A DNA stretch of 64,000 bases from assembly GCA_022709755.1 (NCBI GenBank), contig JAKLIF010000001.1, positions 318,661-382,660 of the forward strand, given 5' to 3'. The DNA comes from Elusimicrobiota bacterium (GTDB lineage Bacteria > Elusimicrobiota > Elusimicrobia > FEN-1173 > JAKLIF01). Of the stretch, positions 24,526 to 47,916 are shown in pieces (positions within the stretch are counted from its first letter, which is position 1; every line of letters starts with the position of its first letter). The notes below the pieces were generated by a model that did not search any database, was not told the DNA's origin, and worked only from the letters and a program-made list of their open reading frames with translations. Position numbers and translations under genes: made by a program.

Positions 24526-24873
24526 TTAGGCGCCCTTCTCACCGGCCCGGTAGAGTATGACGTTGGCCTTCTCCAGGGTGATGAGTCCCTCCCGGACCAT
24601 CTCATCCAGATGGGGCAGGAAACCGTTGATCTTCTCCTCGCTGTCGACCATCTCCACGATGATCGGCAGGTCTTCGGACAAGCGGAGGATCTTGGCCGTG
24701 TGCATATGGCTCTTGCAGCCGAACCCCATCATCCCTTTCAACACCGTGGCTCCCGCCATGCCGTTCTTCCGGGCCAGGTTCACGATGGCCTCGTAGAGCG
24801 GAGCGCCGTTCCACCGGTCGCTCTCCCCGATGAATATCCTCAGCAGTTTTCCATCTTCCGGAATCTTCATGTC
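24526..24873 (-). CDS. DUF190 (P-II-like) protein commonly paired with CrcB/Fluc fluoride channels
   Basis: Probable start MKIPEDGKLLRIFIGESDRWNGAPLYEAIVNLARKNGMAGATVLKGMMGFG...; the longer ORF in the track overlaps crcB. Confidence 0.75.
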   Translation of the reverse strand, partial: DMKIPEDGKLLRIFIGESDRWNGAPLYEAIVNLARKNGMAGATVLKGMMGFGCKSHMHTAKILRLSEDLPIIVEMVDSEEKINGFLPHLDEMVREGLITLEKANVILYRAGEKGA

Positions 24874-24883
24874 ATCCCCCCGT

Positions 24884-25264
24884 CTATACGAACTCGCCGA
24901 TCCAGGCGCCCACACGGAACAACAGGTAGCCGAACACCACGCTGCCGCCGACATTCAAAACGACCTTCAACCACTCCCCGTCTTTCAGCAGGTTCGAGGA
25001 TTCCAGGATGAACGTGGAGAACGTCGTGAAAGCCCCGCAGAAACCGGTCATCAGGAGTATCCGAGAATTCGTCCCCAGGACGAACTTCACTTCCGCCAGA
25101 CTGTTGAAAAATCCGACCAACAGGCAGCCGCACAGGTTGACGACCATCGTTCCGTAGGGGAAATCCGCTCCCCAGAACCGGTAGACGAACCCTCCCAACT
25201 GATACCGGGAGAATCCGCCGAGAAGACTTCCCAACGCCAGGCATAGATATTTTTCCATGATCAT
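24884..25264 (-). CDS. crcB: Fluoride ion channel CrcB/Fluc
   Basis: 126 aa, four TM helices, hallmark GFCGAFTTFSTF motif. Start ATG overlaps the purN stop (ATGA). Confidence 0.9.
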   Translation of the reverse strand: MIMEKYLCLALGSLLGGFSRYQLGGFVYRFWGADFPYGTMVVNLCGCLLVGFFNSLAEVKFVLGTNSRILLMTGFCGAFTTFSTFILESSNLLKDGEWLKVVLNVGGSVVFGYLLFRVGAWIGEFV

Positions 25265-25890
25265 CCTCTTCCGGATCGACCGGAAGTGTTCCCCTCCTTT
25301 CTGATCTGTTCGACCAGCCGGCCGACGACCAGGGGATAGATCCGGTGTTCTTCCTTCAGCACGCGAGCCGCCAAGGTCTCCGGCGTATCCCCGGGAAGAA
25401 CGGGCACGCGGGCCTGCATCAGGACCGGGCCGTGATCGTATTCCTCATCCACCACATGCACGGTGCACCCGGATTCAGTCTCGCGCTCCCCCAGGACGCT
25501 CTCATGGACCCGGTGTCCGAACATCCCGCGGCCGGCATGTTTCGGCAACAGGGATGGATGGATGTTGAGGATTCGTCCTGGATACTGCTGGATGAGGCCG
25601 GATTCCACCTTGAGTAAAAACCCCGCCAGACAGACCAAGGACACTCCCTTTTTTCGGAACTCGGAGGCGATCTTCATGGAGTAGGCCTTTCGGTCCGGGA
25701 AGAGGGCGGGATCCAACACCAAAGATTCCACTCCCAGATCCTTCGCCCGGTCGAGGGCGCCCACCCCCGGACGGTTCGAGATCACCAGTCGCACTTCGGC
25801 CTCGGGGATGCGCCCGTCCTGGACGGCGCGGGCGATCGCCTCGAAATTGCTCCCGCTTCCCGACACCAGCACGCCGATCCCGATCGTCAT
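25261..25890 (-). CDS. purN: Phosphoribosylglycinamide formyltransferase
   Basis: MTIGIGVLVSGSGSNFEAI...ISNRPGVGALDRA...VCLAGFLLKV...NIHPSLLP...H; start ATG at 25890. The ORF-track N-terminal extension overlaps purM. Confidence 0.9.
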   Translation of the reverse strand: MTIGIGVLVSGSGSNFEAIARAVQDGRIPEAEVRLVISNRPGVGALDRAKDLGVESLVLDPALFPDRKAYSMKIASEFRKKGVSLVCLAGFLLKVESGLIQQYPGRILNIHPSLLPKHAGRGMFGHRVHESVLGERETESGCTVHVVDEEYDHGPVLMQARVPVLPGDTPETLAARVLKEEHRIYPLVVGRLVEQIRKEGNTSGRSGRG

Positions 25891-25904
25891 GGGGAGACGG
25901 GGGT

Positions 25905-26885
25905 TCAGATCAATCTGACTTTCTGTGAGCCGGCGGACACCCGGCCGATCTCGTAACAGGGGGATAGATATTTTTGAATGGACCGGGACCGGTCTGGGGA
26001 GACCGCCAACACCATTCCGATGCCCATGTTGAACGTTCGGAACATCTCCTGGTCCCGGACGCGGCCGCGCCGTTGAAGTTCCACGAAGACGTCGTGGACG
26101 GGCCAACGGCCCAGAGTGAACACCGCATCGCATTTCTTCGGGAGGAAACGGGGAACGTTCTCCAAAAGACCTCCGCCGGTGATATGGGCGAGGCCCTTGA
26201 TGTCACCCGGATATCTCTTCAGGGCTCCCAGAACGGGCCGGACATAGATCCTCGTCGGGGCCAGGAGTTTCTTTCCCCATTTTTTCAGCAAAGCCCCCCG
26301 GTAGACCGCCCTCACGAGGGAATACCCGTTGGAATGGAAACCGGAAGAGGGCAGACCCAAGAGCACGTCGCCGGGTTTGATCCGGGAGGGATCCACCCGC
26401 TGGGAATGGTCCACCACTCCCACCGAGAACCCGGCCAGATCGTATTCTCCGGGACGGTACATCCCGGGCATCTCCGCCGTCTCTCCGCCAATCAGGGCGC
26501 ACGCGGCCTCGCGGCAGCCTCGGATGATACCGCCGACGACCTTCTCCGCCACGTCCACATCCAGTTTCCCGGCGGCGAAATAATCCAAGAAGAACAGGGG
26601 CCGGGCTCCGCAACAGATGAGATCGTTCACGTTCATGGCGACCAGGTCAATCCCGATGGTCTCATGCACATCGAGTTCCTGGGCGATCTTCAATTTCGTT
26701 CCCACGCCGTCGGTGCATCCGACCAGATAGGGCCTTTTGTATCCGGCCGGGAACGGGAACAGTCCGGCGAAATCACCGATGGACGGCAGTCGGCGACGGA
26801 TGCGGTCCACCAGCGCGTCCCCGGCATCGATGTCGACTCCGGCCCGACGATAGGTCCAGGATTCGGTTTTTTTCGGCATTCTCAT
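25905..26885 (-). CDS. purM: Phosphoribosylformylglycinamidine cyclo-ligase (AIR synthetase)
   Basis: YRRAGVDIDAGDALVDRI...GLFPF...LVGCTDGVGTKLKIA; start ATG 26885 (MRMPKK). Overlaps the pyrE stop by 4 bp. Confidence 0.92.
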   Translation of the reverse strand: MRMPKKTESWTYRRAGVDIDAGDALVDRIRRRLPSIGDFAGLFPFPAGYKRPYLVGCTDGVGTKLKIAQELDVHETIGIDLVAMNVNDLICCGARPLFFLDYFAAGKLDVDVAEKVVGGIIRGCREAACALIGGETAEMPGMYRPGEYDLAGFSVGVVDHSQRVDPSRIKPGDVLLGLPSSGFHSNGYSLVRAVYRGALLKKWGKKLLAPTRIYVRPVLGALKRYPGDIKGLAHITGGGLLENVPRFLPKKCDAVFTLGRWPVHDVFVELQRRGRVRDQEMFRTFNMGIGMVLAVSPDRSRSIQKYLSPCYEIGRVSAGSQKVRLI

Positions 26886-27481
26886 GTCCTCCCTTCGGGA
26901 CGGCTCCCCGGTTTTTCGACCGGTTTCCCTTCCCGGCATAACGGGCACTGGGTCGGATCGTAATTTTCCAAATCGACGGTCAGCAAGGCAAAATGCGGCG
27001 CCGGGAAAGACGGCGCGTCTTTCCCCCGTTGGACAAGACACGCCAGGCCCGCCACCCGGGCCTTCCAGGACCGGACCAATTCCGTCAGTTCGTTGAAAGA
27101 ACCGCCCGTCGTGAGGACATCGTCCACCAGAAGGACGTTCTCCCCGTCACGAAGGGTGAATCCCCGTCTCAAGACCATCCCCGGGACGTCCCTCTCGGAA
27201 AACACGTGTCGGACTCCCAGCGCCCGGGCCACTTCATGTCCCAGGATCAGCCCCCCCACGGCCGGCGACGCCACCACATCGATCTTCCGGCCTTGTTTTA
27301 AAAGAGCATCCCGGCACTTTTCCGCCAGGGCCCGGCCCAATTGTTCGGCTCGGTCGGGATGCTGAAGAGCTTTGGCGCACTGCATGTAATTCCGGCTGTG
27401 CCGGCCGCTGGACAACTTGAAATGACCCGTGAGCAGCGCCTGGGAATCCTCCAAAATCCTGGTGACGTCTTTTTCGTTCAT
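26882..27481 (-). CDS. pyrE: Orotate phosphoribosyltransferase
   Basis: Start MNEKDVTRILEDSQALLTGHFKLSSGRHSRNYMQCAKALQHP; PRPP-binding motif VLLVDDVLTTGGS. Confidence 0.9.
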   Translation of the reverse strand: MNEKDVTRILEDSQALLTGHFKLSSGRHSRNYMQCAKALQHPDRAEQLGRALAEKCRDALLKQGRKIDVVASPAVGGLILGHEVARALGVRHVFSERDVPGMVLRRGFTLRDGENVLLVDDVLTTGGSFNELTELVRSWKARVAGLACLVQRGKDAPSFPAPHFALLTVDLENYDPTQCPLCREGKPVEKPGSRPEGRT

Positions 27482-28188
27482 GGTTTCCACGCCTTTCTGA
27501 TGTCTCGGACCGCCCGGGCCGGATCCCTGGCCTCGAGGATGGATCTCCCCATCACGACGAAATCCGCCCCGTTCTTCCAAGCGTCCTGCGGGGTGGACAC
27601 TCTCTTCTGATCGGTCCCCGAGACCTTTCCCCACCGGATCCCCGGGGTCACCAAGGTGAGCCCGAACTTCTTCAAGAGCGGGAGTTCCAACGGGGAGCAG
27701 ACCATTCCGTCGAGCCCCTCTCTCCGGGCAAGCCGCGCCAAACGCAGGACCTGTTTCCTGACGCCCGCCGATACGCCGACATCCCTCAGATCCCGGTCGG
27801 AAAAACTCGTCAGCACGCTCACTCCCCAGATCAGGGGCCGCGGACGCGCGGACAGGGCCGCCCTCAACACGTCCCGTCCGGCGCTCAGATGGACCGTGCA
27901 CGAGTCCACGCCCAGCCGGGCGGCGGCCTCCACGGAACGTTTCACCTGGGAAGGGATGTCATACCACTTAAAATCGAGGAATATCTTCTTGCCGCGCTGT
28001 TTCAACCATCGGACGATCGTGGGGTCCTTGAAATACAGGCCCGGGGACACCTTATAGAACCGGACTTGGGATCCGAGTTTCATCACGAGATCCTTGTCCT
28101 GACGGACGGTCTTCCCATCCAACGCCACGATGATATCCTTCTTCGGTCTGGTCATCGTCTTCATCCTCCGTCCGTTGGCCGGGCTCAT
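27478..28188 (-). CDS. pyrF: Orotidine-5'-phosphate decarboxylase
   Basis: IIVALDGKT...KIFLDFKWYDIPSQV (catalytic DxK...D). 4-bp overlaps with pyrE and pyrD. Confidence 0.9.
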   Translation of the reverse strand: MSPANGRRMKTMTRPKKDIIVALDGKTVRQDKDLVMKLGSQVRFYKVSPGLYFKDPTIVRWLKQRGKKIFLDFKWYDIPSQVKRSVEAAARLGVDSCTVHLSAGRDVLRAALSARPRPLIWGVSVLTSFSDRDLRDVGVSAGVRKQVLRLARLARREGLDGMVCSPLELPLLKKFGLTLVTPGIRWGKVSGTDQKRVSTPQDAWKNGADFVVMGRSILEARDPARAVRDIRKAWKP

Positions 28189-29288
28189 ACACCGCGGCCG
28201 ACGGCCTGCATCACGCTCGAAAAACCGTCGCGTCTCAAGAGATCCGAAAGGCCCCGGTTGATCCGGTTCACCAGCGTAAACCCCGAATACACCCAGCCGG
28301 TATAGATCTGGACCAGCGACGCCCCGGCCAATATCTTCTCATACGCGTCCTCGGCGGAAAAGACACCGCCCGACCCGATGAGGAGCAACCGCCCCTTGGA
28401 GAACCGATGGATCCTCCGGAGCGAATCGGTGGAGAGATGTCGGAGAGGCCGGCCGCTCATCCCCCCCTCTTCCGGATAAGGGGGTGTCAGCCCGTCCCGC
28501 GACCGCGTGGTGTTCGTCGCGACGATCCCATCGAACCGGGCCGCCAGGACGCTCTCCACGACGGACTCTTCCATGTTCTCGTCGGGCGAGATCTTCACCA
28601 GCAGCCGGGGCCTCGTCCGAGCCGGCCTCTTCCCGGCCCACTCATCCGCCTTCTCCCGAACCGCCGTCAACAACGCCGCGAGGGAAGCCCCCTCCTGAAG
28701 ACGGCGTAATTCCGGCGTGTTCGGCGAACTCACGTTGACGACGAAATAATCCGCGTGATCGTAAAGAACCTCAAGACACCTCACATAATCGCCGGCGGCA
28801 CGGTCCAACGGCGTCTCCTTCATCTTTCCGATGTTGAACCCCAGCGGGACGGAGACGATCCGTTTCCCCGGCGAGCGGGCCAACCGTTCGGAGACCTTGT
28901 CCGCCCCGGCGTTGTTGAATCCCATCCGGTTCACCAGGGCTTCTTCTTTCACGAAACGGAACAGGCGCGGCGGCGGGTTCCCCGGCTGGCCGGTCGGTGT
29001 CAACGTGCCGGCTTCCAGGAATCCGAATCCGAAATTTTCAAGGGCGGGCAGCGCGACGGCGTCCTTGTCGAAACCCGCGGCCAAGCCGACCGGGTTCGGG
29101 AAAACCAGCCGGTCCTCTCCCTCGCCGACGGTGACTTTCAGAATCTCATCCTTCACGGTCAACACGGACCGAAGGACTCCTCCCCACGGACGAGCGCCCC
29201 ACCGGAGAGCGCAAATCGCCATCCGATGGGCCGTCTCGGGCGGCAGTCGGAAAAGCACGGGGCGGATGAGATTCTTATAGATATTCAA
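28185..29288 (-). CDS. pyrD: Dihydroorotate dehydrogenase (quinone), class 2
   Basis: FPNPVGLAAGFDKD...GFGFLEAGTLTP...NVSSPNTP...GIVATNTT...IGSGGV; N-terminal amphipathic segment typical of class 2. Confidence 0.92.
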   Translation of the reverse strand: MNIYKNLIRPVLFRLPPETAHRMAICALRWGARPWGGVLRSVLTVKDEILKVTVGEGEDRLVFPNPVGLAAGFDKDAVALPALENFGFGFLEAGTLTPTGQPGNPPPRLFRFVKEEALVNRMGFNNAGADKVSERLARSPGKRIVSVPLGFNIGKMKETPLDRAAGDYVRCLEVLYDHADYFVVNVSSPNTPELRRLQEGASLAALLTAVREKADEWAGKRPARTRPRLLVKISPDENMEESVVESVLAARFDGIVATNTTRSRDGLTPPYPEEGGMSGRPLRHLSTDSLRRIHRFSKGRLLLIGSGGVFSAEDAYEKILAGASLVQIYTGWVYSGFTLVNRINRGLSDLLRRDGFSSVMQAVGRGV

Positions 29289-29338
29289 TGGGGGATCCGG
29301 ATCGATGGGTCCGTGACGGTCCCTGAGGGACCGGTCTA

Positions 29339-30649
29339 TTATTTTAAAAGCCCGTCCCGCATCACCACGCGGCCGCCGACGATCACGACCGTCGCAAAAC
29401 CGGTCAGGGTCTTTCCCGCGAACGGCGAGTTCTGGCTGAGGGAACAGAACGAGGTGATCGTCCGTGTCCGATTCGGATCGATCAGGACGACGTCGGCCGG
29501 CGCCGCCGGACCCAGATGACCGACGGGGAGCTTCAATATCTTCGCCGGATTCAAGGATATTTTGCGGATCAGGTCGGTCCAGGACAACGCCTTCTTCCGG
29601 ATCAAATGGGTGACGGCCAACGGCAACAGCGTCTCGAGACCGATGATCCCGAACGGCGCGACGGAAAATTCCTGTTCTTTGGCCGAGCGCGTATGAGGCG
29701 CGTGATCGGAAGCGATGGCGTCGATCGTCCCATCGACCAGTCCCGTCACCAGCGCCTCACAGTCCTTCTTCAGGCGCAGGGGCGGGTTCATCTTCGCGTT
29801 GGTCCCGCACCGGGTCACGGCGTCCTCGGTCAGGGTCAGATGGTGAGGTGTCGCCTCCGCGGTCACGCGGACTCCCCTCTTCTTGGCCGCGCGCACGAGT
29901 TCCACGGATTCCAGAGTCGATAGATGGGCCACGTGCAACCGGGACCCGGTCAGTTCCGCCAACGCGATATCCCGCGCCACGGCCACATATTCCGCCTGCC
30001 GGGGGATGCCCTTATACCCCAGGCGGGTGGCCAACGGTCCCTCGTTCATGACGCCGTCCGCCATCAACGCGCGGTCTTCCGCGTGTTCGATGACGACCAG
30101 ATCAAAGACTTTCGCGTATTCCAGGGCGCGCCGCAACAGCTGGCTGTTCGCGACGGAGGCCCCGTCGTCGGTGATGGCGACGCAACCGTCTCCGACCATC
30201 GCGCCGATCTCGGAGAGGGATTCGCCGGTCCGCCCGCGGGTGATGGTGCCGGTGGGCCACACACGCGCCGCGCCGGACTCTTCCGCCTTGCGGAGGATGA
30301 ACCGGACTCCCGCCACGTTGTCCATGGGCGGCCTCGTGTTGGGCATGGCCACCACGCTGGTGATCCCGCCGGCCACAGCCGCCCGTGTCCCCGACTCGAT
30401 CGTTTCGGCGTCTTCGTTGCCGGGCTCGCGAAGATGGACGTGCATGTCCACCAATCCCGGAGCCACGATGAGCCCCCGCGCTTCCAACACGGAGACATCG
30501 CCCGACACCTTGATATTCTTCCCGACCTGGGCGATCTTCCCTTCGCGGACCAACACATCCATCAAACCGTCCCGCTTATGGGCGGGATCCACCACGCGTC
30601 CACCCCGGATCAACAGCGGTCCTTCTGAAAACTTCTTGATGTCGTTCAT
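29339..30649 (-). CDS. pyrC: Dihydroorotase
   Basis: Start MNDIKKF (ATG 30649). PGLVDMHVHLREPG (HxH metal site), ...ASDHAPH. The long N-terminal ORF extension overlaps pyrB and is discarded. Confidence 0.92.
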   Translation of the reverse strand: MNDIKKFSEGPLLIRGGRVVDPAHKRDGLMDVLVREGKIAQVGKNIKVSGDVSVLEARGLIVAPGLVDMHVHLREPGNEDAETIESGTRAAVAGGITSVVAMPNTRPPMDNVAGVRFILRKAEESGAARVWPTGTITRGRTGESLSEIGAMVGDGCVAITDDGASVANSQLLRRALEYAKVFDLVVIEHAEDRALMADGVMNEGPLATRLGYKGIPRQAEYVAVARDIALAELTGSRLHVAHLSTLESVELVRAAKKRGVRVTAEATPHHLTLTEDAVTRCGTNAKMNPPLRLKKDCEALVTGLVDGTIDAIASDHAPHTRSAKEQEFSVAPFGIIGLETLLPLAVTHLIRKKALSWTDLIRKISLNPAKILKLPVGHLGPAAPADVVLIDPNRTRTITSFCSLSQNSPFAGKTLTGFATVVIVGGRVVMRDGLLK

Positions 30650-31635
30650 GCGATGTCCCTCAAGGCCGGTTCGATGGCATTGTTCTCTTTCTCGATCTCG
30701 GAGGGGTCCAACGTGAACCCGTTCGGTCCGGAGAACATGTAGAGGACCGCCATACGGACGGCGATGCCGTTGGTGACCTGTTCGAGGATCATGGAACGGG
30801 GCCCGTCGGCCACTTCCGACGATATCTCCACGCCTCGGTTCATGGGCCCCGGATGGAGAACGAGACAGTCGGGTTTGGCGAGCCGGAGCCGGTTCTGGTT
30901 CAATCCGTACAGTTCCGTATATTCCCGGAGGCTGGGGAGATAATTCCCCTCCTGTCGTTCGCGCTGGAGCCGGAGCACGTTGATGACATCCGCCCCGCGG
31001 AGGGCCTCCTCCAGGTTGAAGGAAACCTGCACTTTCTTTCCGAAAACTTCCCGGATCCCGGGCGGGATCAGCGTGGCCGGACCGCAGACCGTGACCTGGG
31101 CGCCGAGTTTGGTGAGCCCCCACAGGTTCGAACGGGCGACGCGCGAATGGAGGACGTCTCCGACGATCACGATCCGCAGACCGTCGACGCGGTCTTTCTT
31201 CTCAAGGATCGTGAACATATCCAACAGGCCCTGCGTGGGATGCTCATGCGTGCCGTCGCCGGCGTTGATGACGCGCGCCTTGACTTCCGGCGCGACCAAA
31301 TCGGGCGCCCCCGACGAGGAATGGCGCAACACCATGAAATCCACCTTCATGGCCTCCAACGTCTTGGCCGTATCGAGGAGGGATTCCCCTTTCGTCACGG
31401 AGCTCGTGGCGACGGCGATGTTCAGCGTATCGGCGGACAAACGTTTGGCGGCTAGTTCGAACGAACTCCGTGTGCGGGTGGACGGTTCGAAGAACAGAAG
31501 GGCCACCGTCTTTCCACGCAAAACGGGGACTTTCTTGATGGACCGCGTGAACAACGCCTTCATGGGGCGGGTCGTCTCCAAAATCCGTTCGATCTGCGCC
31601 CGCGTCATCTTCTCCAAACCCAATAGGTCTTTCAC
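30646..31635 (-). CDS. pyrB: Aspartate carbamoyltransferase catalytic subunit
   Basis: ALLFFEPSTRTRSSFE, HPGP, LQ...; GTG start at 31635, 4 nt after the pyrR stop. Confidence 0.93.
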   Translation of the reverse strand: MKDLLGLEKMTRAQIERILETTRPMKALFTRSIKKVPVLRGKTVALLFFEPSTRTRSSFELAAKRLSADTLNIAVATSSVTKGESLLDTAKTLEAMKVDFMVLRHSSSGAPDLVAPEVKARVINAGDGTHEHPTQGLLDMFTILEKKDRVDGLRIVIVGDVLHSRVARSNLWGLTKLGAQVTVCGPATLIPPGIREVFGKKVQVSFNLEEALRGADVINVLRLQRERQEGNYLPSLREYTELYGLNQNRLRLAKPDCLVLHPGPMNRGVEISSEVADGPRSMILEQVTNGIAVRMAVLYMFSGPNGFTLDPSEIEKENNAIEPALRDIA

Positions 31636-31639
31636 GCTG

Positions 31640-32215
31640 TCACCTCGCCCCTTTCCGACCGGGACTCTCTTTTCCCGGCGATCTCAACCAGACGGCATCC
31701 TCGCCGTCGATCTCTTCCAGATGGACTTCCACCATCTCGTCGGCGGCGGTGGACACCGTCTCTCCCGCCACGTCCGCGTGGATGGGCAGTTCCCGATGCC
31801 CCCGGTCCACCAGCACAACCAGGTAGATCTTCTTGGGCCGTCCGAAATCCATCAGTTCATCCAGCGCCGACCGGATCGTGCGCCCCGTGTAAAGGACGTC
31901 GTCCACCAGCAGGACCACCTTTCCCGTCACGTCGAAGGGGATGTCCGTGTCCTGAACGATCGGGTGCAAGGCCACTTCATCCATGTCGTCCCGATAAAAA
32001 GTGATGTCCAGCGTGCCCACGGGCGGGCGGGGAACGCCGGCGTCGGCCAAGTGGCGGCCCAACCGTTCGGCGAGAGGAACCCCGCGCCTCTGGATCCCCA
32101 CGACCACCCATTCCGCCGTCGGTTCAGGAACGGTCTTCAGGATGGTCTTGGCCATCTTCTCGATGAGGACGCGGACCTGGTTCTTGGTCAGTATGTTCTT
32201 TCTCGGTAGATTCAT
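31640..32215 (-). CDS. pyrR: Bifunctional pyrimidine regulatory protein PyrR / uracil phosphoribosyltransferase
   Basis: Start MNLPRKNILTKNQVRVLIEKMA (ATG 32215, overlapping the purD stop). PRPP motif VVLLVDDVLYTGRTIRSAL. Confidence 0.9.
   Translation of the reverse strand: MNLPRKNILTKNQVRVLIEKMAKTILKTVPEPTAEWVVVGIQRRGVPLAERLGRHLADAGVPRPPVGTLDITFYRDDMDEVALHPIVQDTDIPFDVTGKVVLLVDDVLYTGRTIRSALDELMDFGRPKKIYLVVLVDRGHRELPIHADVAGETVSTAADEMVEVHLEEIDGEDAVWLRSPGKESPGRKGAR
31656..31680 (-). promoter_or_regulatory. Candidate PyrR-binding-loop-like RNA hairpin overlapping the 3' end of pyrR, ~20-45 nt upstream of the pyrB GTG
   Basis: Minus-strand RNA CGCCGGGAAAAGAGAGUCCCGGUCGG. 5-7-bp GC stem closing a purine-rich loop that contains AGAGAG, reminiscent of the ...AGAGAGG... 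loop of PyrR binding sites. Confidence 0.25.
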
Positions 32216-33510
32216 GAGCGAGCTCCGGACGCCGTCTTCAGCGCTTTGGCGGCGATGTCTTTTCTGAAATAGATTCCGTCGAATCGGATGGATCGGGCGG
32301 CCGCGTAAGCCCGCCGACAGGCCGTTTCCAGGTCGGGGCCCAAACCCGTCACTCCCAACACCCGTCCTCCGGCGGTCAGGCACCGATCGTTCCGGCGCAC
32401 GGTTCCCGCATGGAAGACCGCCACATCTTCCTGAAGGGCCACGCGGTCCAGCCCGGAGATCTCTTGGCCCTTCTCATAGTCGCCCGGATACCCTCCCGAC
32501 GCCAGCACCACGCAGACCGCCGCGCCGGATTTCACGCGCAACTCGACTTCGTGGAGACGGTTCCCGACCGAGGCCTGGATCACATCAAAAAGATCGTTTT
32601 CCATCAGGGGGAGCACGGCCTGCGTTTCCGGATCGCCGAACCTCACGTTGAACTCCAATATCTTCGGGCCGGATTCCGTCACCATTATACCGAAATAAAT
32701 CACTCCCTCATATCGGAGATTTCGTTCCCTCAACCCCTTCAGGAACGGCTCGAACACCCTCTTCCGGACGGATTCCCAGACCGGGCCCGTCACGAAGGGC
32801 ACCGGCGCATAGGCGCCCATCCCGCCGGTGTTGGGACCCTGATCCCCATCGCCGATACGTTTATGGTCCTGGGACGGGGGAAGGGGGCGGAGGGTCTTTC
32901 CATCGCAGAACGCCATGACGCTCAACTCGTCCCCCTCCAAAAGCTCTTCGATCACCACGCGGGCGCCGGCCGATCCGAAGGCCTTCCGATCCATCAACTC
33001 CCGCAGCGCCTCCAACACTCCGGCGCGGTCCTTGCAGACAAAAACTCCTTTACCCGCGGCCAACCCGTCGGCCTTCACCACCCGGAACGGCTCTTTCCAT
33101 TCGACGGACTCCACAAAGGCGACCGCTTGGGAAAGGTCCGAAAACTCCCTGTAATCGGCTGTGGGGATCCCGTGTTCCGTCATGAACCGTTTAGCGAAAA
33201 TCTTGCTCCCCTCGAGTTGCGCCGCCTCCCGGCCGGGCCCGAAGACCGCCCCCCCGTCTTTCCGGATCAGGTCGGCCAGTCCTTCCACCAGGGGCGCTTC
33301 CGGACCGACGACCGTCAATCCGATCTTCTGTTCCTTCAGGAAAGAGAGGACGTTCCGTCCGTCCTTCAGGTCCAGCGGCACGCCGCGCGCCACGGCGTCG
33401 ATCCCGGCGTTGCCCGGCGAACACCAGAGCGTCTCCACCCGGGGACTCTTCTTCAAGGCCCAGGCCAACGCGTGTTCGCGACCGCCGCCACCGATGAGGA
33501 GAACGTTCAT
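32212..33510 (-). CDS. purD: Phosphoribosylamine--glycine ligase
   Basis: MNVLLIGGGGREHALAWAL...; ATP-grasp region; 432 aa. Confidence 0.93.
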   Translation of the reverse strand: MNVLLIGGGGREHALAWALKKSPRVETLWCSPGNAGIDAVARGVPLDLKDGRNVLSFLKEQKIGLTVVGPEAPLVEGLADLIRKDGGAVFGPGREAAQLEGSKIFAKRFMTEHGIPTADYREFSDLSQAVAFVESVEWKEPFRVVKADGLAAGKGVFVCKDRAGVLEALRELMDRKAFGSAGARVVIEELLEGDELSVMAFCDGKTLRPLPPSQDHKRIGDGDQGPNTGGMGAYAPVPFVTGPVWESVRKRVFEPFLKGLRERNLRYEGVIYFGIMVTESGPKILEFNVRFGDPETQAVLPLMENDLFDVIQASVGNRLHEVELRVKSGAAVCVVLASGGYPGDYEKGQEISGLDRVALQEDVAVFHAGTVRRNDRCLTAGGRVLGVTGLGPDLETACRRAYAAARSIRFDGIYFRKDIAAKALKTASGARS

Positions 33511-35210: not shown

Positions 35211-35295
35211 GGATCGGACCCCCGAATCCGTCCGACGGACATCCGTGCGCCGGTTCATCCTCTTTTTGTTCATCATCAGTGTCATCATGGCCCTG

Positions 35296-39937: not shown

Positions 39938-40398
39938 TCCATCTCCATCGTCTGGACAAGGTCGTTCATCAGGTATCTCTCACAAAACGTTTTGACGTCC
40001 TGGCGGGACACCGGCCCCCGGAACTCATAGGCGAACCCGGTGCGGACCCGTTCAATGTTGTCGCATCCCAGATCGCGCGCCCCGAGCATCACCGTCTCAG
40101 CGGGAGGGTCCGAGACGCCCGGCTTGGGCCAGATCCGGACCCGGCGGACCCCGCTCCGGGTCGGCCGATGGTCGGCATACACGATCTCGCCGGTCTGGGT
40201 GATCGGATCGGTGAGGAGCGACTCCGTCAGGCGCTGAACATCCGCATCGCTCAGTCCGGAACCCGACAGTTCATAGACCTGCCCCGTCCCGATACCGTCG
40301 AGGGAAGGAAGTTTCGCGTGTCTCCACTCCGCCTCCAAGGCCCGTCCCCGATGGTCGATGACCCGGGGTTTCAGACTCACGAACACCCGCCAATTCAT
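39934..40398 (-). CDS. purS: PurS, tandem-duplicated (two PurS-like halves in one 154-aa polypeptide)
   Basis: First half WRVFVSLKPRVIDHRGRALE...DVQRLTESLLTDPITQ. Second half VRRVRIWPKPGVSDPPAETVMLG...VKTFCERYLMNDLVQT. Each resembles the ~80-aa PurS fold. 4-bp overlap with purL. Confidence 0.7.
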   Translation of the reverse strand: MNWRVFVSLKPRVIDHRGRALEAEWRHAKLPSLDGIGTGQVYELSGSGLSDADVQRLTESLLTDPITQTGEIVYADHRPTRSGVRRVRIWPKPGVSDPPAETVMLGARDLGCDNIERVRTGFAYEFRGPVSRQDVKTFCERYLMNDLVQTMEME

Positions 40399-40408: not shown

Positions 40409-41293
40409 TCATGAGAACTTCTCTCCGGTCAACGTCTCATACGCCGACACATATTTTTCCCGCGTCTTCCGGACGACATCCGGCGGAAGGGCCGGGGCGG
40501 GCGGGCGGCGGTCCCAACCGATGCGGTCCAAATGGTCCCGCACGTACTGTTTGTCGAACGACTCTTGAGGGCGGCCCGGCCGATAAGACGACCGGTCCCA
40601 ATAGCGGGATGAATCCGGGGTCAATAACTCATCGATCAGGATGATCCCGCCGTCTATTTCGCCGAACTCGAATTTGGTGTCCGCCAGGATGAACCCGCGG
40701 GACTCGGAGGTGGCCGACGCTTCCTTGAAGATCTTCAGGCTGAGGTCCTTCAACCGGCCGGCCCGTTCCGTTCCGACCAGCGCGCAGAGCCGCTCGTAAT
40801 CGATATTTTCGTCGTGCGCCCCCTGCGGGGCCTTGATGGCGGGCGTGAAAAGCGGCTCCGGAAAGCGGTCCGATTCCTTCAGTCCCGGCGGCAGGGGGAT
40901 CCCGGCGACGGTCCGCTTCTCCTGATATTCCTTCCAAGCGGACCCCGCCAGATATCCGCGCACCACGCACTCGACGTCGATCCGGCGGGCCTTCTTGACC
41001 AGCACCGTGCGTCCCTCCAGGGCCGGCCGGTAGGCCGCGGCCTCCGGCGGGAAACGGCCGATATCCGTCGAGACCAGATGGTTCGCGCAGACCGTCCCCA
41101 TCCTCTGGAACCAAAAATTGGACAGCCGGCACAACAGCACCCCTTTTTGAGGGACGAGCGTCGGGAGGATGGAATCGTAGGCGGAGATGCGGTCCGTGGC
41201 GACGATCAGAAGGTTCTCTCCGAGGTCGTAGACATCCCGGACCTTGCCGCGGGTCCACAGTTTGAAAGGGAGTTCCGGCGTCGGGAATGTCAT
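40409..41293 (-). CDS. purC: Phosphoribosylaminoimidazole-succinocarboxamide synthase
   Basis: GKVRDVYDLGENLLIVATDRISAYD...; 294 aa. Confidence 0.92.
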   Translation of the reverse strand: MTFPTPELPFKLWTRGKVRDVYDLGENLLIVATDRISAYDSILPTLVPQKGVLLCRLSNFWFQRMGTVCANHLVSTDIGRFPPEAAAYRPALEGRTVLVKKARRIDVECVVRGYLAGSAWKEYQEKRTVAGIPLPPGLKESDRFPEPLFTPAIKAPQGAHDENIDYERLCALVGTERAGRLKDLSLKIFKEASATSESRGFILADTKFEFGEIDGGIILIDELLTPDSSRYWDRSSYRPGRPQESFDKQYVRDHLDRIGWDRRPPAPALPPDVVRKTREKYVSAYETLTGEKFS

Positions 41294-41321
41294 CAGAGAT
41301 CGGTGTCCGAAACGGGGGTCG

Positions 41322-42848
41322 TCATTCCCACTCGATGGTCGCGGGAGGTTTGGAAGTGATGTCGTAGACGACGCGGTTGACTCCGCGCACCTCGTTGACG
41401 ATCCGGGACGATATCTTCGCCAGGACGTCCTCCGGCAGGCGCGCCCAATCGGCGGTCATGGCGTCCACCGACCGGACGGCGCGGACGGCGATGGTGTCCT
41501 CATAGGTACGTTCATCTCCCATCACGCCCACGCTGTTCACGGGCAGGAGGACGGCGAACGCCTGCCACAGACTGTTGTAAAGACCGGCGGCGCGGATCTC
41601 CTGTTCCACGATGTGATCCGCCTTGCGGACGCAGTCCAGCCGCTCTTCCGTCACGGCGCCCAAAACGCGGATCGCCAAACCGGGTCCCGGGAACGGCTGT
41701 CTCAACAAAAGGTCGGCGGGCAATCCCAGCCGGCGGCCCAACTCACGGACCTCGTCCTTGAACAGGAAGCGGAGCGGCTCCAACAGCCTCATCTTCATCC
41801 GCTTCGGCAGACCGCCCACGTTGTGATGGGTCTTGATCGTGGCCGAGGGTCCTTTCACGGAGACGCTCTCGATCACATCCGGATAAAGGGTCCCCTGGGC
41901 GAGGTATCGGATCCCCCGGTATTTCCGGGCGCTCCTTTCGAAGACGGAGATGAATTCATGCCCGATGATCTTTCTTTTCCGTTCCGGATCGGTCACGTTC
42001 CGGAGCCTGGAAAGGAACTGTCGACGGGCATCCACGATCTCCAAGGTCAGCCCCCGCGTCTTTCCGAAAACCGCCCGGACGCGCTCCTCCTCTCCCTGCC
42101 GGAGCAGGCCGTTGTTCACAAAGATGCAGATCAGTTGTGTCCCGATCGCTTCGCGGAGGAGGGCCGCCGTCACCGACGAATCCACCCCGCCGGACAGCGC
42201 GAGGATCACCCGCTCGCTTCCCACCGTCTCCCGGATCTTCCTCTTCTCGGATTCGGCGAACGAGGCCATATCCCAATCCGGCGTCTCTCCGCACACCCGG
42301 AACAGAAAATTGGACAGGATCTCGCGTCCCTGCGGCGTGTGATGCACCTCGGGATGGAATTGGACGCCGTAGAAACGCCTCGCGGGATCGGCGCACGCGG
42401 CGAAGGGAGCGTTCGCCGTGGTGGCCAGCGACACGAACCCCTCCGGAAGACGTTGGGCCGCGTCACCGTGGCTCATCCACACGTTCAACGTTTTGGAAAG
42501 CCCGGCGAACAGGTCCCGGCCGGCGGCCACATCGATGCGGGCCGGGCCGTATTCCCTCCGCGCGGACCGGACGACCTGACCCCCGAAATGAGTCACCATC
42601 ACCTGCAATCCGTAACAGATGCCCAAGACGGGAAGCCCCAACGCGAAGATCCCCGGATCCGGATGGGGAGCCCCCTTGGAGAAGACGCTGGCGGGCCCGC
42701 CGGACAGGATGAGGCCCCGGGGATTCGACGCCCGGATCTTGTCGACGGGATAGTTGAACGGATGTATCTCGCAGAAGACGTTCGCCTCGCGGACACGCCG
42801 GGCGATCAACTGGGTGTATTGGGATCCGAAATCAAGTATGACGATCAT
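41322..42848 (-). CDS. guaA: GMP synthase (glutamine-hydrolysing)
   Basis: [21 protein letters not shown]...GICYGLQ (GATase Cys). ATP-PPase SGGVDSSV. 508 aa. Confidence 0.95.
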
Positions 42849-42967
42849 CGGGTTGTGTCTTATCCTTTCCGATCGGGGGACCGGTCATTTAAAACCAGAA
42901 AACAGCGGGTGTTCTCGCTTCGGATGCGGCGACGGCGGCGATGACAGGATGAAAGAACGGAGGGGAC

Positions 42968-44131
42968 CTATTTCTTCCCCATTCCCACTCTCTGGGCCTG
43001 CTGAAAAAGTTTTCCTTCGTGCTTGATCTCCGGGGCGATGATGATCTCCGCCAACTGCAGTTCCCGGATGGTCCTGGCGCCGACGTATCCCATGCAGGTC
43101 CGCAACGCGCCCACGAAGTTCTGAAGTCCTTCTTCCTGGGTGGCCGGCCCGAAGAGGATCTCCTCGAGCGTGCTGGTGGTCCCCACATGGATCCGCGTGC
43201 CGCGCGGCAGGTATCGGTCCGGCATGGCCATGCCCCAATGATATCCCCGGCCGGGGGCTTCCTTGGCGCGGGCGAAGGTGGATCCCATCATGACCAGGTC
43301 CGCGCCGGCGGTGAACGCCTTGCAGACGTCGCCGGAGTTGGTCATCCCCCCGTCGGTGATGATGGAGACGTAACGGCCGGTCTTCTTGAAAAAATAGTCG
43401 CGGGCGGCCGCGCAATCCACGGTGGAAGTGATCTGCGGCACGCCGATCCCGAGCACTCCGCGGGAGGTGCAGGCCGCGCCGGGGCCGACCCCGACGAGGA
43501 TTCCCGCGCAGCCGGTCTCCATCAGTTCCAGAGCCGCCGTGTGCGTCACCACGTTTCCGATGATGACCGGGATCTTCAGCTCCTTGCAAAGTCTTCCGAG
43601 ATCCAGCGGTTTCCCGCGGGACGATTCATACCTCGCGGTGGCCACGGTCCCCTGCACCACCAGCACGTCCGCGCCGGCCTTGGCCGCCACGGCGCCGAAA
43701 TGAGCCGCGTTCTTGGGAACGCAGGACACCGCCGCGGCCGCGCCGCCCTTCTTGATCTCCTGGATCCGCCTGGAGATCAACGATTCCTGGATCGGCTGGG
43801 AGTAGATCTTCTGCAATATCTTGGGAGCGCTCTCCGGCGTGGCCTTGGCGATCTCCGAATACGCCTCTTCCGGCGATTCATAACGCGTGTGCAGCCCTTC
43901 CAGGTTCAGCACGGCCAAACCGCCCAGTTTTCCCATGGCCACGGCGAACTTCACGTCCACCGTGCCGTCCATGGCGCTGGCCACGAACGGGATCTTGAAT
44001 TTGAGGGGACCGATCACGGTCTCCGTGTTGGTGTCTTCGGGGTCCACCGTCATCATCCCCGGAACGATCGCCACTTCGTCGAACCCATACGCCCGCCGCG
44101 CTTCCCGATCCCGTCCTATGAAAAATGACAT
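42968..44131 (-). CDS. IMP dehydrogenase/GMP reductase family protein (CBS-less GuaB-like)
   Basis: FDEVAIVPG...; active-site loop [20 protein letters not shown] (cf. IMPDH GIGPGSICTTR..GVGVPQ). 387 aa, no CBS pair. Confidence 0.8.
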
Positions 44132-44194
44132 CCCATCCTCCTTGTGTGATGAATCTCAACGTCCCCGGCGTGTCGCCGGCGAAAATATTTATTT

Positions 44195-44752
44195 TTACAG
44201 ACGCGGCAACGTGATCGCCGTCTGTTTCTGATATTTCCCCTTCTTGTCCGCGTAGGAGACGGCGCACACCTCGTCCGCCTCGAAGAACAGCACCTGCGCG
44301 ATCCCCTCATTGGCGTAGACCCGGGCCGGCAACGGCGTCGTGTTCGAGATCTCCAGCGTGACGAACCCCTCCCACTCGGGCTCGAACGGCGTCACGTTGA
44401 CGATGATGCCGCAACGCGCATAGGTGGATTTCCCGACGCAGATGGTGAGCACGTTCCGGGGGATCCGGAAATATTCCACCGTCTGGGCCAGCGCGAACGA
44501 ATTGGGCGGCACCACGATGAAATCCTCCGTGATGATGTCCACGAACGACCGGGGATCGAACCGTTTCGGGTCCACGACCGTGTTGTGCACGTTCGTAAAG
44601 ACCTTGAAATGGTTCCCCACGCGGATGTCATACCCGTAACTCGAGACCCCGTAAGAGATCACGCCCTCGCGCACCTGCGCATCCACGAAAGGTTCGATCA
44701 TCCGGTGTTCCAACGCCATGCGGCGGATCCACGAATCTTGTTTTATCGACAT
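44195..44752 (-). CDS. dcd: dCTP deaminase
   Basis: [13 protein letters not shown]...GYDIRVGN...; 185 aa. Confidence 0.88.
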
Positions 44753-44786
44753 GAGAGCTCCTTGGGTGATGGTCCCCGGCGGCCGG

Positions 44787-47333
44787 TCAGGAACATTCCG
44801 AATGGCCGCAATCGTGACAGGTCACGCCGGAACAGCCGCTTTCCCGGGCCACGTTGTTTGAATAACAGGACGGGCAATAGAGGGCCGCGGCGCGGTCCCA
44901 CAATTCCAATCCCTGGGACGGGACCGGCGTGGCCCCGTTCCCGTTGGCGTTCGGCTCCAGCTTGTTCGTCTTCTGGAGATGCGTGCGCAGGGCCGTCGAG
45001 ATCGCGTGCGGGATGGAATCCACCCGGTAAGCGCCGAACCCGAAGGGACGGTCCCCCTTCACGGAGTTCAGATGTTTGAGGACGCGCACCGGATCTCCGC
45101 CCGCTTCCATGTATTTGGAGATCAGGATCCCCACCACCGACGTCAACCCGGACAGTTCCGTCCCGAGCGGAGGCAGATTGGTGAACACCCGGTAGGGCCC
45201 GGTCTCGTCGTAATCGATATGGACGTGCAGGGGACCGTAACCGGTCCGGATCTCGTAATACTCCGACGCCACGCCGCGCGACGAATCGCGCGACCGCGTC
45301 CCGTTCTCCGCCTTCTTCGCATCCAGGTTCAGCACCTGGTGGGACTTCGATCCGTCCCGGTAGATCGTGATGCCCTTGCAGCCCAGCCGATAGGCCAGCC
45401 AATAGGCCTCCTTCACGTCGTCCACCGTGGCGGTGTTCGGCATGTTGATGGTCTTGGACACGGCGTTGTCCGTGTGTTCCTGAAACGCCGCCTGGATCTT
45501 GACGTGGAACGGCACGGCCACGTCATGGGCGGAGGTGAACAGGTTCTGGATGTCGGCGGGAATCTCGGAGATCCCCTTGACGGACTTGTGGTTGTTCTCG
45601 ATCTTCTTCCACAACTCCTCTTCTTTGAGCCCGTAATAGCCGTCCCGGCGCGCCACCTCGCGGAAGAGCGGGTTCACTTCATAGAACACGTCCTTCTCGT
45701 TGGGGGTCTCGCCGCTCTTGATGGCGTCGAGCGCCTTGGCGTTATATCGCGTGTAGGTGATGGCGAAGAAGGGCTCGATCCCGGCGCCTTGCAGTCCGGC
45801 GGCCAGACCGATCGTCCCGGTCGGGGCGATGGTCGTGCGGGCGCAATGACGCGGATAACTTTCCCGTCCACGGAAGTGGGGGCTCTGCGGGTCATAGATA
45901 CTGCTTCGCCAGTTGGGGAACGCGCCGCGTTCCTGGGCCAACGACTCGGACGCTTCCTGGGCCTTGTCGTTGACAAACTTCATCACCTCGCGGGCCTGCG
46001 CCAACGCCTCCTCCGAATCGTAGGGGATCCCCAGTTTCACCAGGGTCTCCGCCCAACCCATCACGCCCAAACCGATCCGGCGGTTGCCCTTGGAAAGGAT
46101 CTCGATCTCCGGGAGCGGATAATTGTTCACTTCGATGACGTCGTCCAGGAACCGCACGGCCAGGGCCACCGTCTCACCGAGACGTTCCCAATCGATCTCG
46201 CCCTCGAGGATCTCGCCCCGCACGAAGTTGGACAGGTTGATGGACCCGAGGTTGCACGGCTCGTTCGGGAGGAGCGGCTGTTCGCCGCAGGGGTTGGTGC
46301 TCTCGATCTGGCCCAGATGGGGCGTGGGATTCGAGTTGGACTGGTTGATGCGGTCGATGACCACGATGCCCGGATCGCCGGTCTTCCAGGCGAAGTCCGC
46401 CATCATGTCGAACACCTCGCGGGCGTTGGCCTTGCCGACCGGCGTCATGGAACGCGGGTTGAGCAGGTCGTAATCTTCGCCCTTTTCGACGGCCTGCATG
46501 AACTTGTCGTCGATCGCCACCGACACGTTGAAATTCTCCATCACGCCCTGCTTGGACTTCATGGTGATGAATTCCTTGATCTCCGGATGCCAGTAGGGGA
46601 GGATGCCCATGTTGGCGCCGCGGCGGGCCCCGCCCTGCTTCACCACGTCCGTCATCTTGTCGAAAACCTGCATGAAGGAAATCGCCCCGGACGCCACCCC
46701 CTGGGTGGTCTTGACCTCGTCTCCCGACGGACGCAAGCGTTGGAACGAGAAACCGGTCCCCCCTCCCGACTTATGGATAAGCGCCTGCGCCTTCACCGCG
46801 TTGGCAATCCCCTCGATCGAATCCTCGACGGGGAGCACGTAACAGGCCGACAACTGCTGGAGTTCCCGGCCGGCGTTCATCAGCGTCGGCGAATTGGGGA
46901 GGAAATCCCAGCGGGCCATCATGTTATAGAACCGCGTCTTCCACGTGTCCGCGAGGATCTTGGCTTCGGGGATCTCCTGACCGGCCCGCTTCAGGTTCGC
47001 CAGGTACTTCGAGAAGTTGTGGTCGCGCTCCCGGGAGGACAAAAGCCCCTGATGGAAGAGGATCAGCCGCGTCGTATGGCCGTTCCTCGTCGCCACGTCC
47101 GAGATGCGGCAATGGACGTCGTCCCAAATGCCCCAGGACTCCGACTTGGGGGAATGGACCAACTCGGCCAAAGCGATGTTCTCGGCGACGCGATCCAGCC
47201 ACTGTTCGGCGGTATCGTCCCCGCGCACATATTTATCCTGTATCACTTTCTTCTGGTTTTCCGCCATCCGAAGGGTCACCTTCAACGGGTGTGCCGCCTC
47301 CGCGGGGCGGACCGGTGTTTGAATCATGTTCAT
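44787..47333 (-). CDS. nrdJ: Ribonucleotide reductase class II, adenosylcobalamin-dependent (monomeric NrdJ type) with C-terminal zinc ribbon
   Basis: ...[15 protein letters not shown]..., [23 protein letters not shown] (active-site Cys/Glu). C-terminal ...YCPSCYSNN...[10 protein letters not shown]. Start probably MNMIQTP; the ORF-track N-terminal extension overlaps nrdR. Confidence 0.92.
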
Positions 47334-47385
47334 TCCTTTTTTCCCCTTTGCTTTATTGGTGGAAGGTGACGATGATTTCGATGAA

Positions 47386-47916
47386 TCAGCGCGGTGAGTC
47401 GACATGCGACAGCTTCCATTTCTCTTTTTCCAAAGCGTTCTGCTTGGTCTTCATATGCTCCCGTTGGTGGCGGCGCTTCAACTTGCGCAGCTCCCCCAGG
47501 AACGCCTCCAGGTCCGCGAACTTCTTGTAGACCGACGCGAACCGCACGTAGGCCACGGGATCCAGCTCGTGAAGTTTCTTCAAGGTGCGCTCCCCGATCT
47601 CCCGGCTCGGCACCTCCAAAACGAAGTCCTGCAACTCATACTCGATCTCCGCCACCATCTTCTCGATGGCATCGGACGAGATGGGCCTCTTCTCGCAAGC
47701 GTGGAGTATCCCGTTCCTCAGTTTGGCCCGGTTGAACGGTTCCCGCCGGTTGTCGTTCTTGATCACCATGAGGGGGGTTGACTCCACCCGTTCGTAGGTG
47801 GTGAACCGTTTCCCGCAATGGCCGCAGACGCGGCGACGGCGGATCAACGTGGCCGATTCCAGGGGCCTGGAATCGATGACTCTGTCTTCAGGATGACGGC
47901 AATAGGGACAACGCAT
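47386..47916 (-). CDS. nrdR: Transcriptional repressor NrdR
   Basis: MRCPYCRHPEDRVIDSRPLESATLIRRRRVCGHCGKRFTTYERVE (zinc ribbon) followed by an ATP-cone. Directly upstream of nrdJ. Confidence 0.92.
   Translation of the reverse strand: MRCPYCRHPEDRVIDSRPLESATLIRRRRVCGHCGKRFTTYERVESTPLMVIKNDNRREPFNRAKLRNGILHACEKRPISSDAIEKMVAEIEYELQDFVLEVPSREIGERTLKKLHELDPVAYVRFASVYKKFADLEAFLGELRKLKRRHQREHMKTKQNALEKEKWKLSHVDSPR

Follow-up and report, generated by a model that had tools for sequence, protein, structure and literature searches.

Gene content of the cluster

The DNA analyzed here, a stretch of 64,000 nucleotides (nt) to which we refer as the window, comes from a metagenome-assembled genome (MAG) of an uncultured Elusimicrobiota bacterium. 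The block under study occupies positions 24526-47916 on its minus strand and consists of 23 consecutive genes, the first of which, nrdR, starts with an ATG at 47916 and the last of which, a DUF190 gene, has its stop codon at 24526; the genes of purine and pyrimidine synthesis are interleaved in it (Table 1). The cluster encodes eight of the ten purine enzymes (all except PurB and PurH) and five of the six pyrimidine steps (all except CarAB), as well as the guanosine monophosphate (GMP) branch, a class II ribonucleotide reductase together with its repressor, and deoxycytidine triphosphate (dCTP) deaminase. When tested against NCBIfam and Pfam, the gene names passed the curated cutoffs or gave very strong E values, upholding all 23 identities, and with them the order and the coordinates, that an original prediction had proposed from the sequence; gene starts were picked from homology and Shine-Dalgarno context. 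As to whether purB, purH, carAB, and pyrG, which are missing from the cluster, lie elsewhere in the genome, the answer covers the 64-kb window, in the remainder of which none of the four was found.

Two products at the head of the cluster deserve comment. NrdR has the zinc ribbon and ATP-cone architecture, its alignment to TIGR00244 spanning the full length. The gene two positions upstream of purC, described originally as IMPDH-like (IMPDH being inosine monophosphate [IMP] dehydrogenase), turned out to be guaB3, and it sits beside guaA, in the place expected for guaB. The closest structure to its product is PDB 8p4q, deposited as “IMP dehydrogenase subunit,” and given this match, guaB3-guaA plausibly encode the entire IMP-to-GMP branch.

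Gene junctions

The 22 junctions of the cluster are tight compared with those of flanking genes. Eight of them are 4-bp ATGA overlaps, two of which cross the boundary between the pathways (purD/pyrR and pyrE/purM), while purL and purQ are separated by a gap of 0 nt; the other gaps measure 3 to 14 nt, plus 28, 34, 50, 52, 63, and 119 nt. Four of the wider gaps (52, 34, 63, and 119 nt) belong to the head of the cluster, between nrdR and guaA, and the 50-nt gap lies between pyrC and pyrD. The six 4-bp overlaps of the original prediction (purD/pyrR, pyrB/pyrC, pyrD/pyrF, pyrF/pyrE, pyrE/purM, and purN/crcB) are all present where it placed them, and of the three pairs that it described as abutting, purL/purQ is so, whereas purS/purL and purK/purE overlap by 4 bp. 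Another in-frame start is available a few codons farther on in pyrF, purM, and crcB, which leaves two or three of the overlaps uncertain; for pyrF, the alternative start at 28155 has a better Shine-Dalgarno sequence than that at 28188. An alternative start of nrdJ at 47405 would create a 20-nt overlap with nrdR.

The median gap is 4 nt in the block versus 71 nt for flanking genes on the same strand, and gaps of at least 99 nt occur at 1 of 22 junctions in the block versus 6 of 12 flanking same-strand pairs (Fisher P = 0.004; range, P = 0.004 to 0.008). Between 21.5 and 64 kb, nearly every gene is on the minus strand, so that the co-orientation of the block by itself carries little weight. The cluster displays what is expected of one operon, namely, codirectional genes with short or overlapping junctions.

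Predicted control elements

A consensus scan placed the strongest promoter-like sites of the coding strand at the two borders of the block only: one upstream of nrdR (48041-48013), and the other upstream of the next gene, pgm (24495-24467). Between 24.5 and 48.0 kb, the same scan found no coding-strand site scoring at least 10/12, in a phylum for which the promoter consensus is not established. The −35 and −10 elements of the nrdR promoter, together with the adjacent NrdR box, are kept in the closest relative found, locus L092. At the opposite end, the hairpin directly after DUF190 (24519-24500) is the sole intergenic terminator-like hairpin on the coding strand. Weaker terminator-like matches occur within coding sequence (27 against a shuffled mean of 17.6, and 26 against 15.7, about 2 standard deviations above), and the earlier statement that the first terminator-like hairpin follows DUF190 therefore holds for intergenic hairpins.

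The nrdR promoter is overlaid by candidate NrdR boxes. Only two sites in the 64 kb match ACACWATATATWGTGT with at most four mismatches, and both lie upstream of nrdR (48162-48177 and 47917-47932; shuffle P of ~0.01); NrdR boxes in the window are confined to the head of the cluster. Two further sites (47991-48006 and 48021-48036) bracket the −10 element at a spacing of 30 bp, so that tandem predicted boxes over the nrd promoter, the hallmark of an NrdR-regulated nrd locus, are present as sequence matches. Similar boxes occur in relatives: L134 has one at the same position as 47917-47932, abutting the nrdR start, the 47991-48006 box is conserved as ACACATGATATTGATT in L092, and the relatives carry clear tandem boxes 31 to 32 bp apart upstream of either nrdR or nrdJ. 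On the strength of these matches, NrdR would control the block from its head.

Farther upstream than the main nrdR promoter, another AT-rich stretch (48100-48230, minus strand) also looks like a promoter; it holds the best NrdR box of the window and is followed downstream by a hairpin with a U-rich tail (48131-48113) that has no Rfam match. It may represent an additional promoter, a leader of the attenuator type, or a small transcript.

Known cis-regulatory RNAs were not detected. At the gathering threshold, Rfam returned a single tRNA for the whole window, outside the cluster; at E values up to 5, the interval from 24.0 to 48.6 kb held no element except one chance-level match to a small RNA, and three relatives searched at E values up to 1 gave nothing. 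Hence, at E values up to 5, the cluster contains no Rfam match to a purine, ZTP (5-aminoimidazole-4-carboxamide riboside triphosphate), phosphoribosyl pyrophosphate (PRPP), B12, or fluoride riboswitch or to a PyrR site. None of the intergenic hairpins folds significantly below its shuffled energy (z of −0.7 to −1.8). This includes a hairpin in the 50-nt gap between pyrC and pyrD, which has no U-tract on the coding strand and for which we claim no regulatory role, its folding (z = −1.4) not being significant.

Conservation and probable origin of the nested layout

Relatives of the cluster were traced from PyrR homologues with 57 to 71% identity to the contigs that carry them, and a second metagenome scan was anchored on GuaB3. 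A scan of genome contigs by PyrR alignment was dominated by distant phyla (at most 54% identity) and contained no close relatives; its 80 loci serve as a background survey. The order pyrR-pyrBCDFE-purMN(-purB) recurs in seven relatives (L084, L086, L088, L090, L091, L172, and L175), three of which (L086, L088, and L172) have NCBI records as Elusimicrobia or Elusimicrobiota MAGs. The pyrE-purM junction is the most stable, with gaps of −4, −4, −4, −1, −20, +10, and +28 nt in the window and six relatives, while in L175 it holds a 927-nt toxin-antitoxin insertion. Immediately 5′ of pyrR, purD is found in six lineages (the window, L173, L172, L091, L090, and L084), at distances between −4 and +100 nt; the two genes are kept apart in L086 by a 5-kb insertion on the opposite strand, and in L088, L174, and L175 unrelated genes precede the pyrR block. 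The spacer between purD and pyrR has been lost completely only in the window species among those compared.

The upstream part of the cluster is likewise shared. About 35 metagenome contigs have guaB3 adjacent to guaA, about 25 of them with nrdJ-dcd in front, and in about ten of the contigs with nrdJ-dcd-guaB3-guaA the series is headed by nrdR; several of these contigs run on into purC-S-L-Q. L092, with 83% GuaB3 identity, matches the window gene for gene as far as pyrR, apart from purK, which was not detected. L156 reads nrdR-nrdJ-dcd-guaB3-guaA-purC-S-L-Q-D-M-N-B and has no pyr genes. Because purD, purM, purN, and purB form one chain there, the interleaving is best read as a complete pyr operon that would have become nested within a pur operon, between purD and purM, or, conversely, been excised from it in L156.

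Outside the lineage, this layout is indeed rare, in line with the earlier description of it as unusual: purM follows pyrE in none of the 80 background pyrR loci, 79 of which come from other phyla. The order purD-purE-pyrR occurs in this survey only in L063, an Endomicrobiaceae contig and thus itself Elusimicrobiota, and purC follows pyrC in an Acidobacteriota contig (L027).

Could the order be a recent, strain-specific rearrangement without functional meaning? Two traits seen in the window species alone, the tail of crcB and DUF190 and a purD-pyrR spacer that has disappeared completely, would fit such an event, whereas the core order is common to relatives down to 57% identity in PyrR and 61% in GuaB3, and protein identities of 57 to 83% imply that the relatives’ contigs do not stem from the same population. 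The notion that the order might be unique to this strain can therefore be dismissed, the interleaving being kept across Elusimicrobiota relatives, and we consider a meaningless rearrangement very improbable. Even more improbable, to the point of being negligible, is an artifact of assembly or binning that joined separate pur, pyr, and nrd loci, as one might suspect of a MAG. Three independent assemblies from different projects (JGI 3300010429, ENA ERZ761563, and ERZ27257456) agree with 100% identity across the 20,576 bp from guaA to eno, the contigs bearing the block are 70 to 538 kb long, and the relatives share the order. The genes from dcd to DUF190 correspond to NCBI proteins with consecutive accessions, HOW27168 to HOW27188.

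Several relatives carry insertions that leave the gene order of the cluster intact. L172 has a SulP transporter gene between purQ and purF and an unknown open reading frame (ORF) of 534 amino acids (aa) between pyrC and pyrD (5484-7271 and 12863-14467, respectively), L175 has PIN and zeta-toxin genes (13952-14580 and 15906-16831), and L090 has a bAvd-like gene (3995-4372). In L087, pyrC and pyrD were called as a single ORF of 801 aa (11535-13940).

PyrR and the missing leader

Since pyrR starts inside purD, it has no 5′ leader, and the earlier remark that there is no room for classical PyrR attenuation agrees with the RNA searches: the PyrR binding loop (RF00515) has no match in the window (E up to 5) or in three relatives (E up to 1). 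The loop motif ARTCCAGAGAGGYT gave only chance-level matches in the window, with three mismatches and at irrelevant positions, and GAGAGG-like strings 5′ of pyrR in some relatives are indistinguishable from Shine-Dalgarno sequences.

The protein itself retains an intact PRPP-binding motif (VLLVDDVLYTGRT). For RNA binding, the relevant residues of Bacillus subtilis PyrR are Thr18, Arg19, His22, Arg27, Arg141, Arg146, and Lys152, a list that reportedly goes back to Savacool and Switzer in 2002. By alignment to Bacillus-like PyrR structures, the corresponding residues of the window PyrR are Glu, Lys, Lys, Thr, Arg, His, and Glu. Of 16 members of the lineage, three have kept Arg19 and none has kept His22 or Arg146; the other 80 loci retain Arg19 in 55/58, His22 in 42/58, and Arg146 in 43/80. 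The missing equivalents of Arg19, His22, and Arg146 make classical attenuation unlikely in this lineage, and they are suggestive of a PyrR that acts as an enzyme or as a different kind of regulator instead of a classical mRNA-binding attenuator.

One operon or several

With some reserve, we favor the reading that the block is a lineage-conserved nucleotide super-operon, with an NrdR-overlapped promoter at its head and its end after DUF190. It would be built of three modules. The first, nrdR-nrdJ-dcd-guaB3-guaA, would serve the supply of deoxynucleoside triphosphates and the GMP branch; the second, purC-S-L-Q-F-K-E-D, would cover the first part of the purine pathway; and the third, pyrR-pyrB-C-D-F-E-purM-purN, would be the pyr operon nested between purD and purM, followed by purB in the relatives or by crcB-DUF190 in the window. 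In the window species, the modules have come to overlap or to lie only a few bases apart, and for this reason at least the part from guaA to DUF190 is most likely cotranscribed, as the whole 23.4 kb from nrdR to DUF190 probably is. Transcription would start at the sigma-70-like promoter overlapped by the NrdR operators and stop at the hairpin that follows DUF190, ribosomes would pass from cistron to cistron, including across the purine/pyrimidine boundaries, and PyrR would be retained as a phosphoribosyltransferase or in another role. Cotranscription, translational coupling, NrdR control, and the loss of RNA binding by PyrR are all what we infer from sequence, and so is the joint stoichiometric expression of both pathways, as initially proposed, if it is to come from one transcript.

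Several points weigh against this super-operon. Cotranscription is deduced from gap lengths and pattern scans, and a pattern scan would miss promoters inside coding sequence, where internal promoters might therefore lie; the gaps of 52, 34, 63, and 119 nt at the head and the 50-nt gap between pyrC and pyrD could accommodate promoters or processing sites. The NrdR boxes of the window carry three to six mismatches; a spacing of about 30 bp is seen for the pair that flanks the promoter and for no other. Arg146 of PyrR varies in other phyla too, so that the loss of RNA binding is suggestive only. Finally, in most relatives, an A-tract followed by an extended −10-like element (TGnnATAAT) precedes the pyrR start by 10 to 40 nt, from which it appears that the third module was probably a unit of its own in the ancestor, and an equivalent of this element might still function within the 3′-terminal part of purD of the window species. 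Together with the stand-alone pyrR...purB units of some relatives, these elements indicate that the coupling of purD to pyrR is not a lineage-wide requirement.

Some of these observations also support the main alternative, a conserved neighborhood (“uber-operon”) of several units, such as nrdR-guaB3, guaA-purD, and pyrR-DUF190, with internal promoters that would lie concealed within the short gaps or the 3′ ends of the preceding genes, and in which the pathways would not be obligatorily coupled. It would account not only for the −10-like elements but also for the stand-alone position of pyrR...purB in L088 and L175 and its 5-kb distance from purD in L086, for the different ways in which the modules recombine between loci (L093, L097, L098, L110, and L125), and for the 119-nt guaB3-guaA gap, which is T/A-rich toward its 3′ end. 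What argues against it is that in the window purD and pyrR overlap and the last 200 nt of purD hold no extended −10-like element, that the coding strand of the block is free of high-scoring promoter-like sites, and that pyrE/purM is tight in nearly all relatives. We entertain separate units as a real, if less favored, possibility.

The most far-reaching version of the super-operon reading would have one ~23-kb transcript for all modules, an operator for NrdR and no other, NrdR as the deoxyadenosine triphosphate (dATP)/ATP sensor that is master of all de novo nucleotide synthesis, and PyrR demoted to an enzyme or to another role; taken as a whole, we regard this combination as unlikely. The idea of NrdR as a single gatekeeper is put forward as a hypothesis, and no new molecular mechanism is claimed.

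Table 1. Genes and predicted control elements of the nucleotide cluster, listed from its head to its tail
Feature	Position	Strand	Evidence and remarks
NrdR-box-like site	48162-48177		Best match of the window, 3 mismatches; AT-rich region further upstream
NrdR-box-like site, weaker partner	48021-48036		6 mismatches; 30 bp upstream of the 47991-48006 site, within promoter spacer
Sigma-70-like promoter	48013-48041	-	TTGACA-17-TAGAAT, 11/12, consensus scan; upstream of nrdR
NrdR-box-like site	47991-48006		5 mismatches; just downstream of −10 element
NrdR-box-like palindrome	47917-47932		4 mismatches to ACACWATATATWGTGT; abuts nrdR start codon
nrdR, transcriptional repressor of ribonucleotide reductase genes	47386-47916	-	TIGR00244, 186 bits; model aligned over its full length (positions 1-146 of 147)
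nrdJ, B12-dependent class II ribonucleotide reductase	44787-47333	-	TIGR02504, 669 bits
dcd, dCTP deaminase	44195-44752	-	TIGR02274, 168 bits
guaB3, IMP dehydrogenase class without CBS	42968-44131	-	TIGR01304, 435 bits; PDB 8p4q, 444 bits
guaA, GMP synthase	41322-42848	-	NF000848, 792 bits; largest internal gap (119 nt) upstream
purC	40409-41293	-	NF010568, 391 bits
purS	39934-40398	-	154 aa, unusually long; PurS models match residues 86-152 only
purL	37505-39937	-	TIGR01736, 613 bits; 4-bp overlap with purS (39934-39937)
purQ	36707-37504	-	TIGR01737, 228 bits; abuts purL
purF	35296-36702	-	TIGR01134, 509 bits
purK	34014-35288	-	NF004679, 322 bits
purE	33514-34017	-	TIGR01162, 206 bits; 4-bp overlap with purK (34014-34017)
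purD	32212-33510	-	TIGR00877, 528 bits
pyrR, PyrR-family phosphoribosyltransferase	31640-32215	-	NF003549, 200 bits (cutoff, 138); 4-bp overlap with purD (32212-32215)
pyrB	30646-31635	-	NF002032, 407 bits
pyrC	29339-30649	-	TIGR00857, 427 bits; 4-bp overlap with pyrB (30646-30649)
Hairpin in pyrC-pyrD gap	29317-29333	-	−18.7 kcal/mol for 61-nt stretch
pyrD, quinone-dependent class 2	28185-29288	-	NF003652, 412 bits, alignment starts at residue 3; TTG start
pyrF	27478-28188	-	NF001273, 215 bits; 4-bp overlap with pyrD (28185-28188) if start is 28188
pyrE	26882-27481	-	TIGR01367, 191 bits; 4-bp overlap with pyrF (27478-27481)
purM	25905-26885	-	TIGR00878, 385 bits; 4-bp overlap with pyrE (26882-26885); strong Shine-Dalgarno AAGGGAGG within pyrE
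purN	25261-25890	-	TIGR00639, 189 bits
crcB, fluoride channel	24884-25264	-	TIGR00494, 86 bits; 4-bp overlap with purN (25261-25264)
DUF190 gene	24526-24870	-	PF02641, 144 bits
Terminator-like hairpin	24500-24519	-	8 pairs, then UUUAUU; −13.9 kcal/mol; directly after DUF190
Promoter-like site of pgm	24495-24467	-	TTGACA-17-TAACAT, consensus scan

The tail, PurS, and neighboring genes

The fluoride channel gene that had been noted at the tail is real, and it is joined to purN by an overlap. DUF190 is the usual partner of crcB. The crcB-DUF190 tail was seen in the window species only, while relatives carry purB at this place, sometimes after an inserted gene; on the sequences compared, the pair is a species-specific replacement at the purB position. 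A crcB-motif fluoride riboswitch was found neither at the gathering score nor at E values up to 5. The pair lies immediately upstream of pgm-eno (21586-25264, minus strand), with eno two genes downstream, and enolase is a classic fluoride-sensitive enzyme; crcB-DUF190-pgm-eno may form a functional neighborhood.

PurS has about twice the usual length, which relatives keep (153 to 158 aa). BLASTP detected no similarity between its two halves, so that a tandem duplication (“double PurS”) is not established; the N-terminal one is either a PurS repeat that has diverged strongly or a novel extension.

The cluster is immediately preceded by genes for ferritin and for KatG, a catalase-peroxidase (48315-51072, minus strand), a presence that hints at exposure of the organism to oxygen. 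Guanine-cytosine skew is negative across 21500-64000, where the strong bias toward the minus strand is also found, and this region probably belongs to one replichore. Directly downstream of a gene for a TonB-dependent receptor (16786-18696), seven tandem ORFs of ~345 to 610 aa occupy 5343-16714 of the minus strand (5343-6710, 6722-7756, 7753-9537, 9488-11326, 11333-13108, 13121-14941, and 14945-16714). Four of the seven were searched against Pfam and had no match; the ORFs may represent a paralogous family of surface or secreted proteins.

Comparison with known systems

The pur operon of B. subtilis, purEKBCSQLFMNHD, is expressed as one transcript under PurR and a guanine riboswitch. Like it, the cluster is a long one-strand set for de novo purine synthesis with overlapping or abutting cistrons, a formylglycinamidine ribonucleotide synthase split into PurS, PurL, and PurQ, and adjacent purM and purN. 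It differs in its order (purC-S-L-Q-F-K-E-D ... M-N), in the absence of purB and purH from the window and of a purine riboswitch, in the pyr operon between purD and purM, and in the chaining of guaA, guaB3, dcd, and nrdJ upstream.

The Bacillus-type pyr operon runs pyrR-pyrP-pyrB-C-AA-AB-K-D-F-E, with PyrR attenuation at three leader or intercistronic sites. The nested pyr genes resemble it in having pyrR first, with a product that passes the PyrR family cutoff, and pyrB-C-D-F-E in equal order, whereas they lack the 5′ leader, the PyrR binding loop, carAB, and pyrP. Moreover, pyrD is of the quinone-dependent class 2, the cluster runs on into purM-purN, and PyrR has lost the equivalents of Arg19, His22, and Arg146.

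NrdR regulons, reportedly described by Rodionov and Gelfand in 2005, are said to feature tandem 16-bp NrdR boxes at nrd promoters. The position of nrdR beside a ribonucleotide reductase gene, the palindromes matching ACACWATATATWGTGT over the promoter, and the spacing of the box pairs in relatives all fit this scheme, from which the window departs by the degeneracy of its boxes. If the block is one transcript, NrdR would gate GMP, purine, and pyrimidine genes, unlike in the described regulons, which consist mainly of nrd genes; this suggests a wider role for NrdR.

Fluoride-riboswitch-controlled crcB/DUF190 units were reportedly described by Baker et al. in 2012. The cluster shares with them the crcB-DUF190 pair and the enolase gene two genes downstream, and differs in having no riboswitch and in placing crcB, overlapping purN, at the tail of a biosynthetic cluster. 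GuaB3 resembles cyanobacterial GuaB3 (PDB 8p4q and 8p37), to which it aligns over its full length, and its family model (TIGR01304) was passed; the activity is predicted by this similarity. What sets it apart is its location between dcd and guaA, an adjacency kept in dozens of metagenome contigs.

Neither a mixed pur/pyr operon nor such a layout in Elusimicrobia turned up in full-text literature searches, so that the arrangement, as a matter of comparative genomics, is probably unreported, while every component is a known protein family. The merged layout offers a natural test of whether nucleotide pools can be balanced by operon architecture and translational coupling alone, and it includes a PyrR clade whose roles as enzyme and as regulator may have come apart. 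As a compact ~23-kb set for most of de novo nucleotide synthesis, it could also interest synthetic biologists. Purine, pyrimidine, and deoxynucleotide synthesis are usually encoded and regulated apart, by PurR or a riboswitch, by PyrR, and by NrdR, respectively. What appears distinctive in this Elusimicrobiota lineage, with its PyrR clade devoid of the RNA-binding signature and no known cis-regulatory RNA detected, is that three normally separate regulons are physically fused, with pyr nested in pur.

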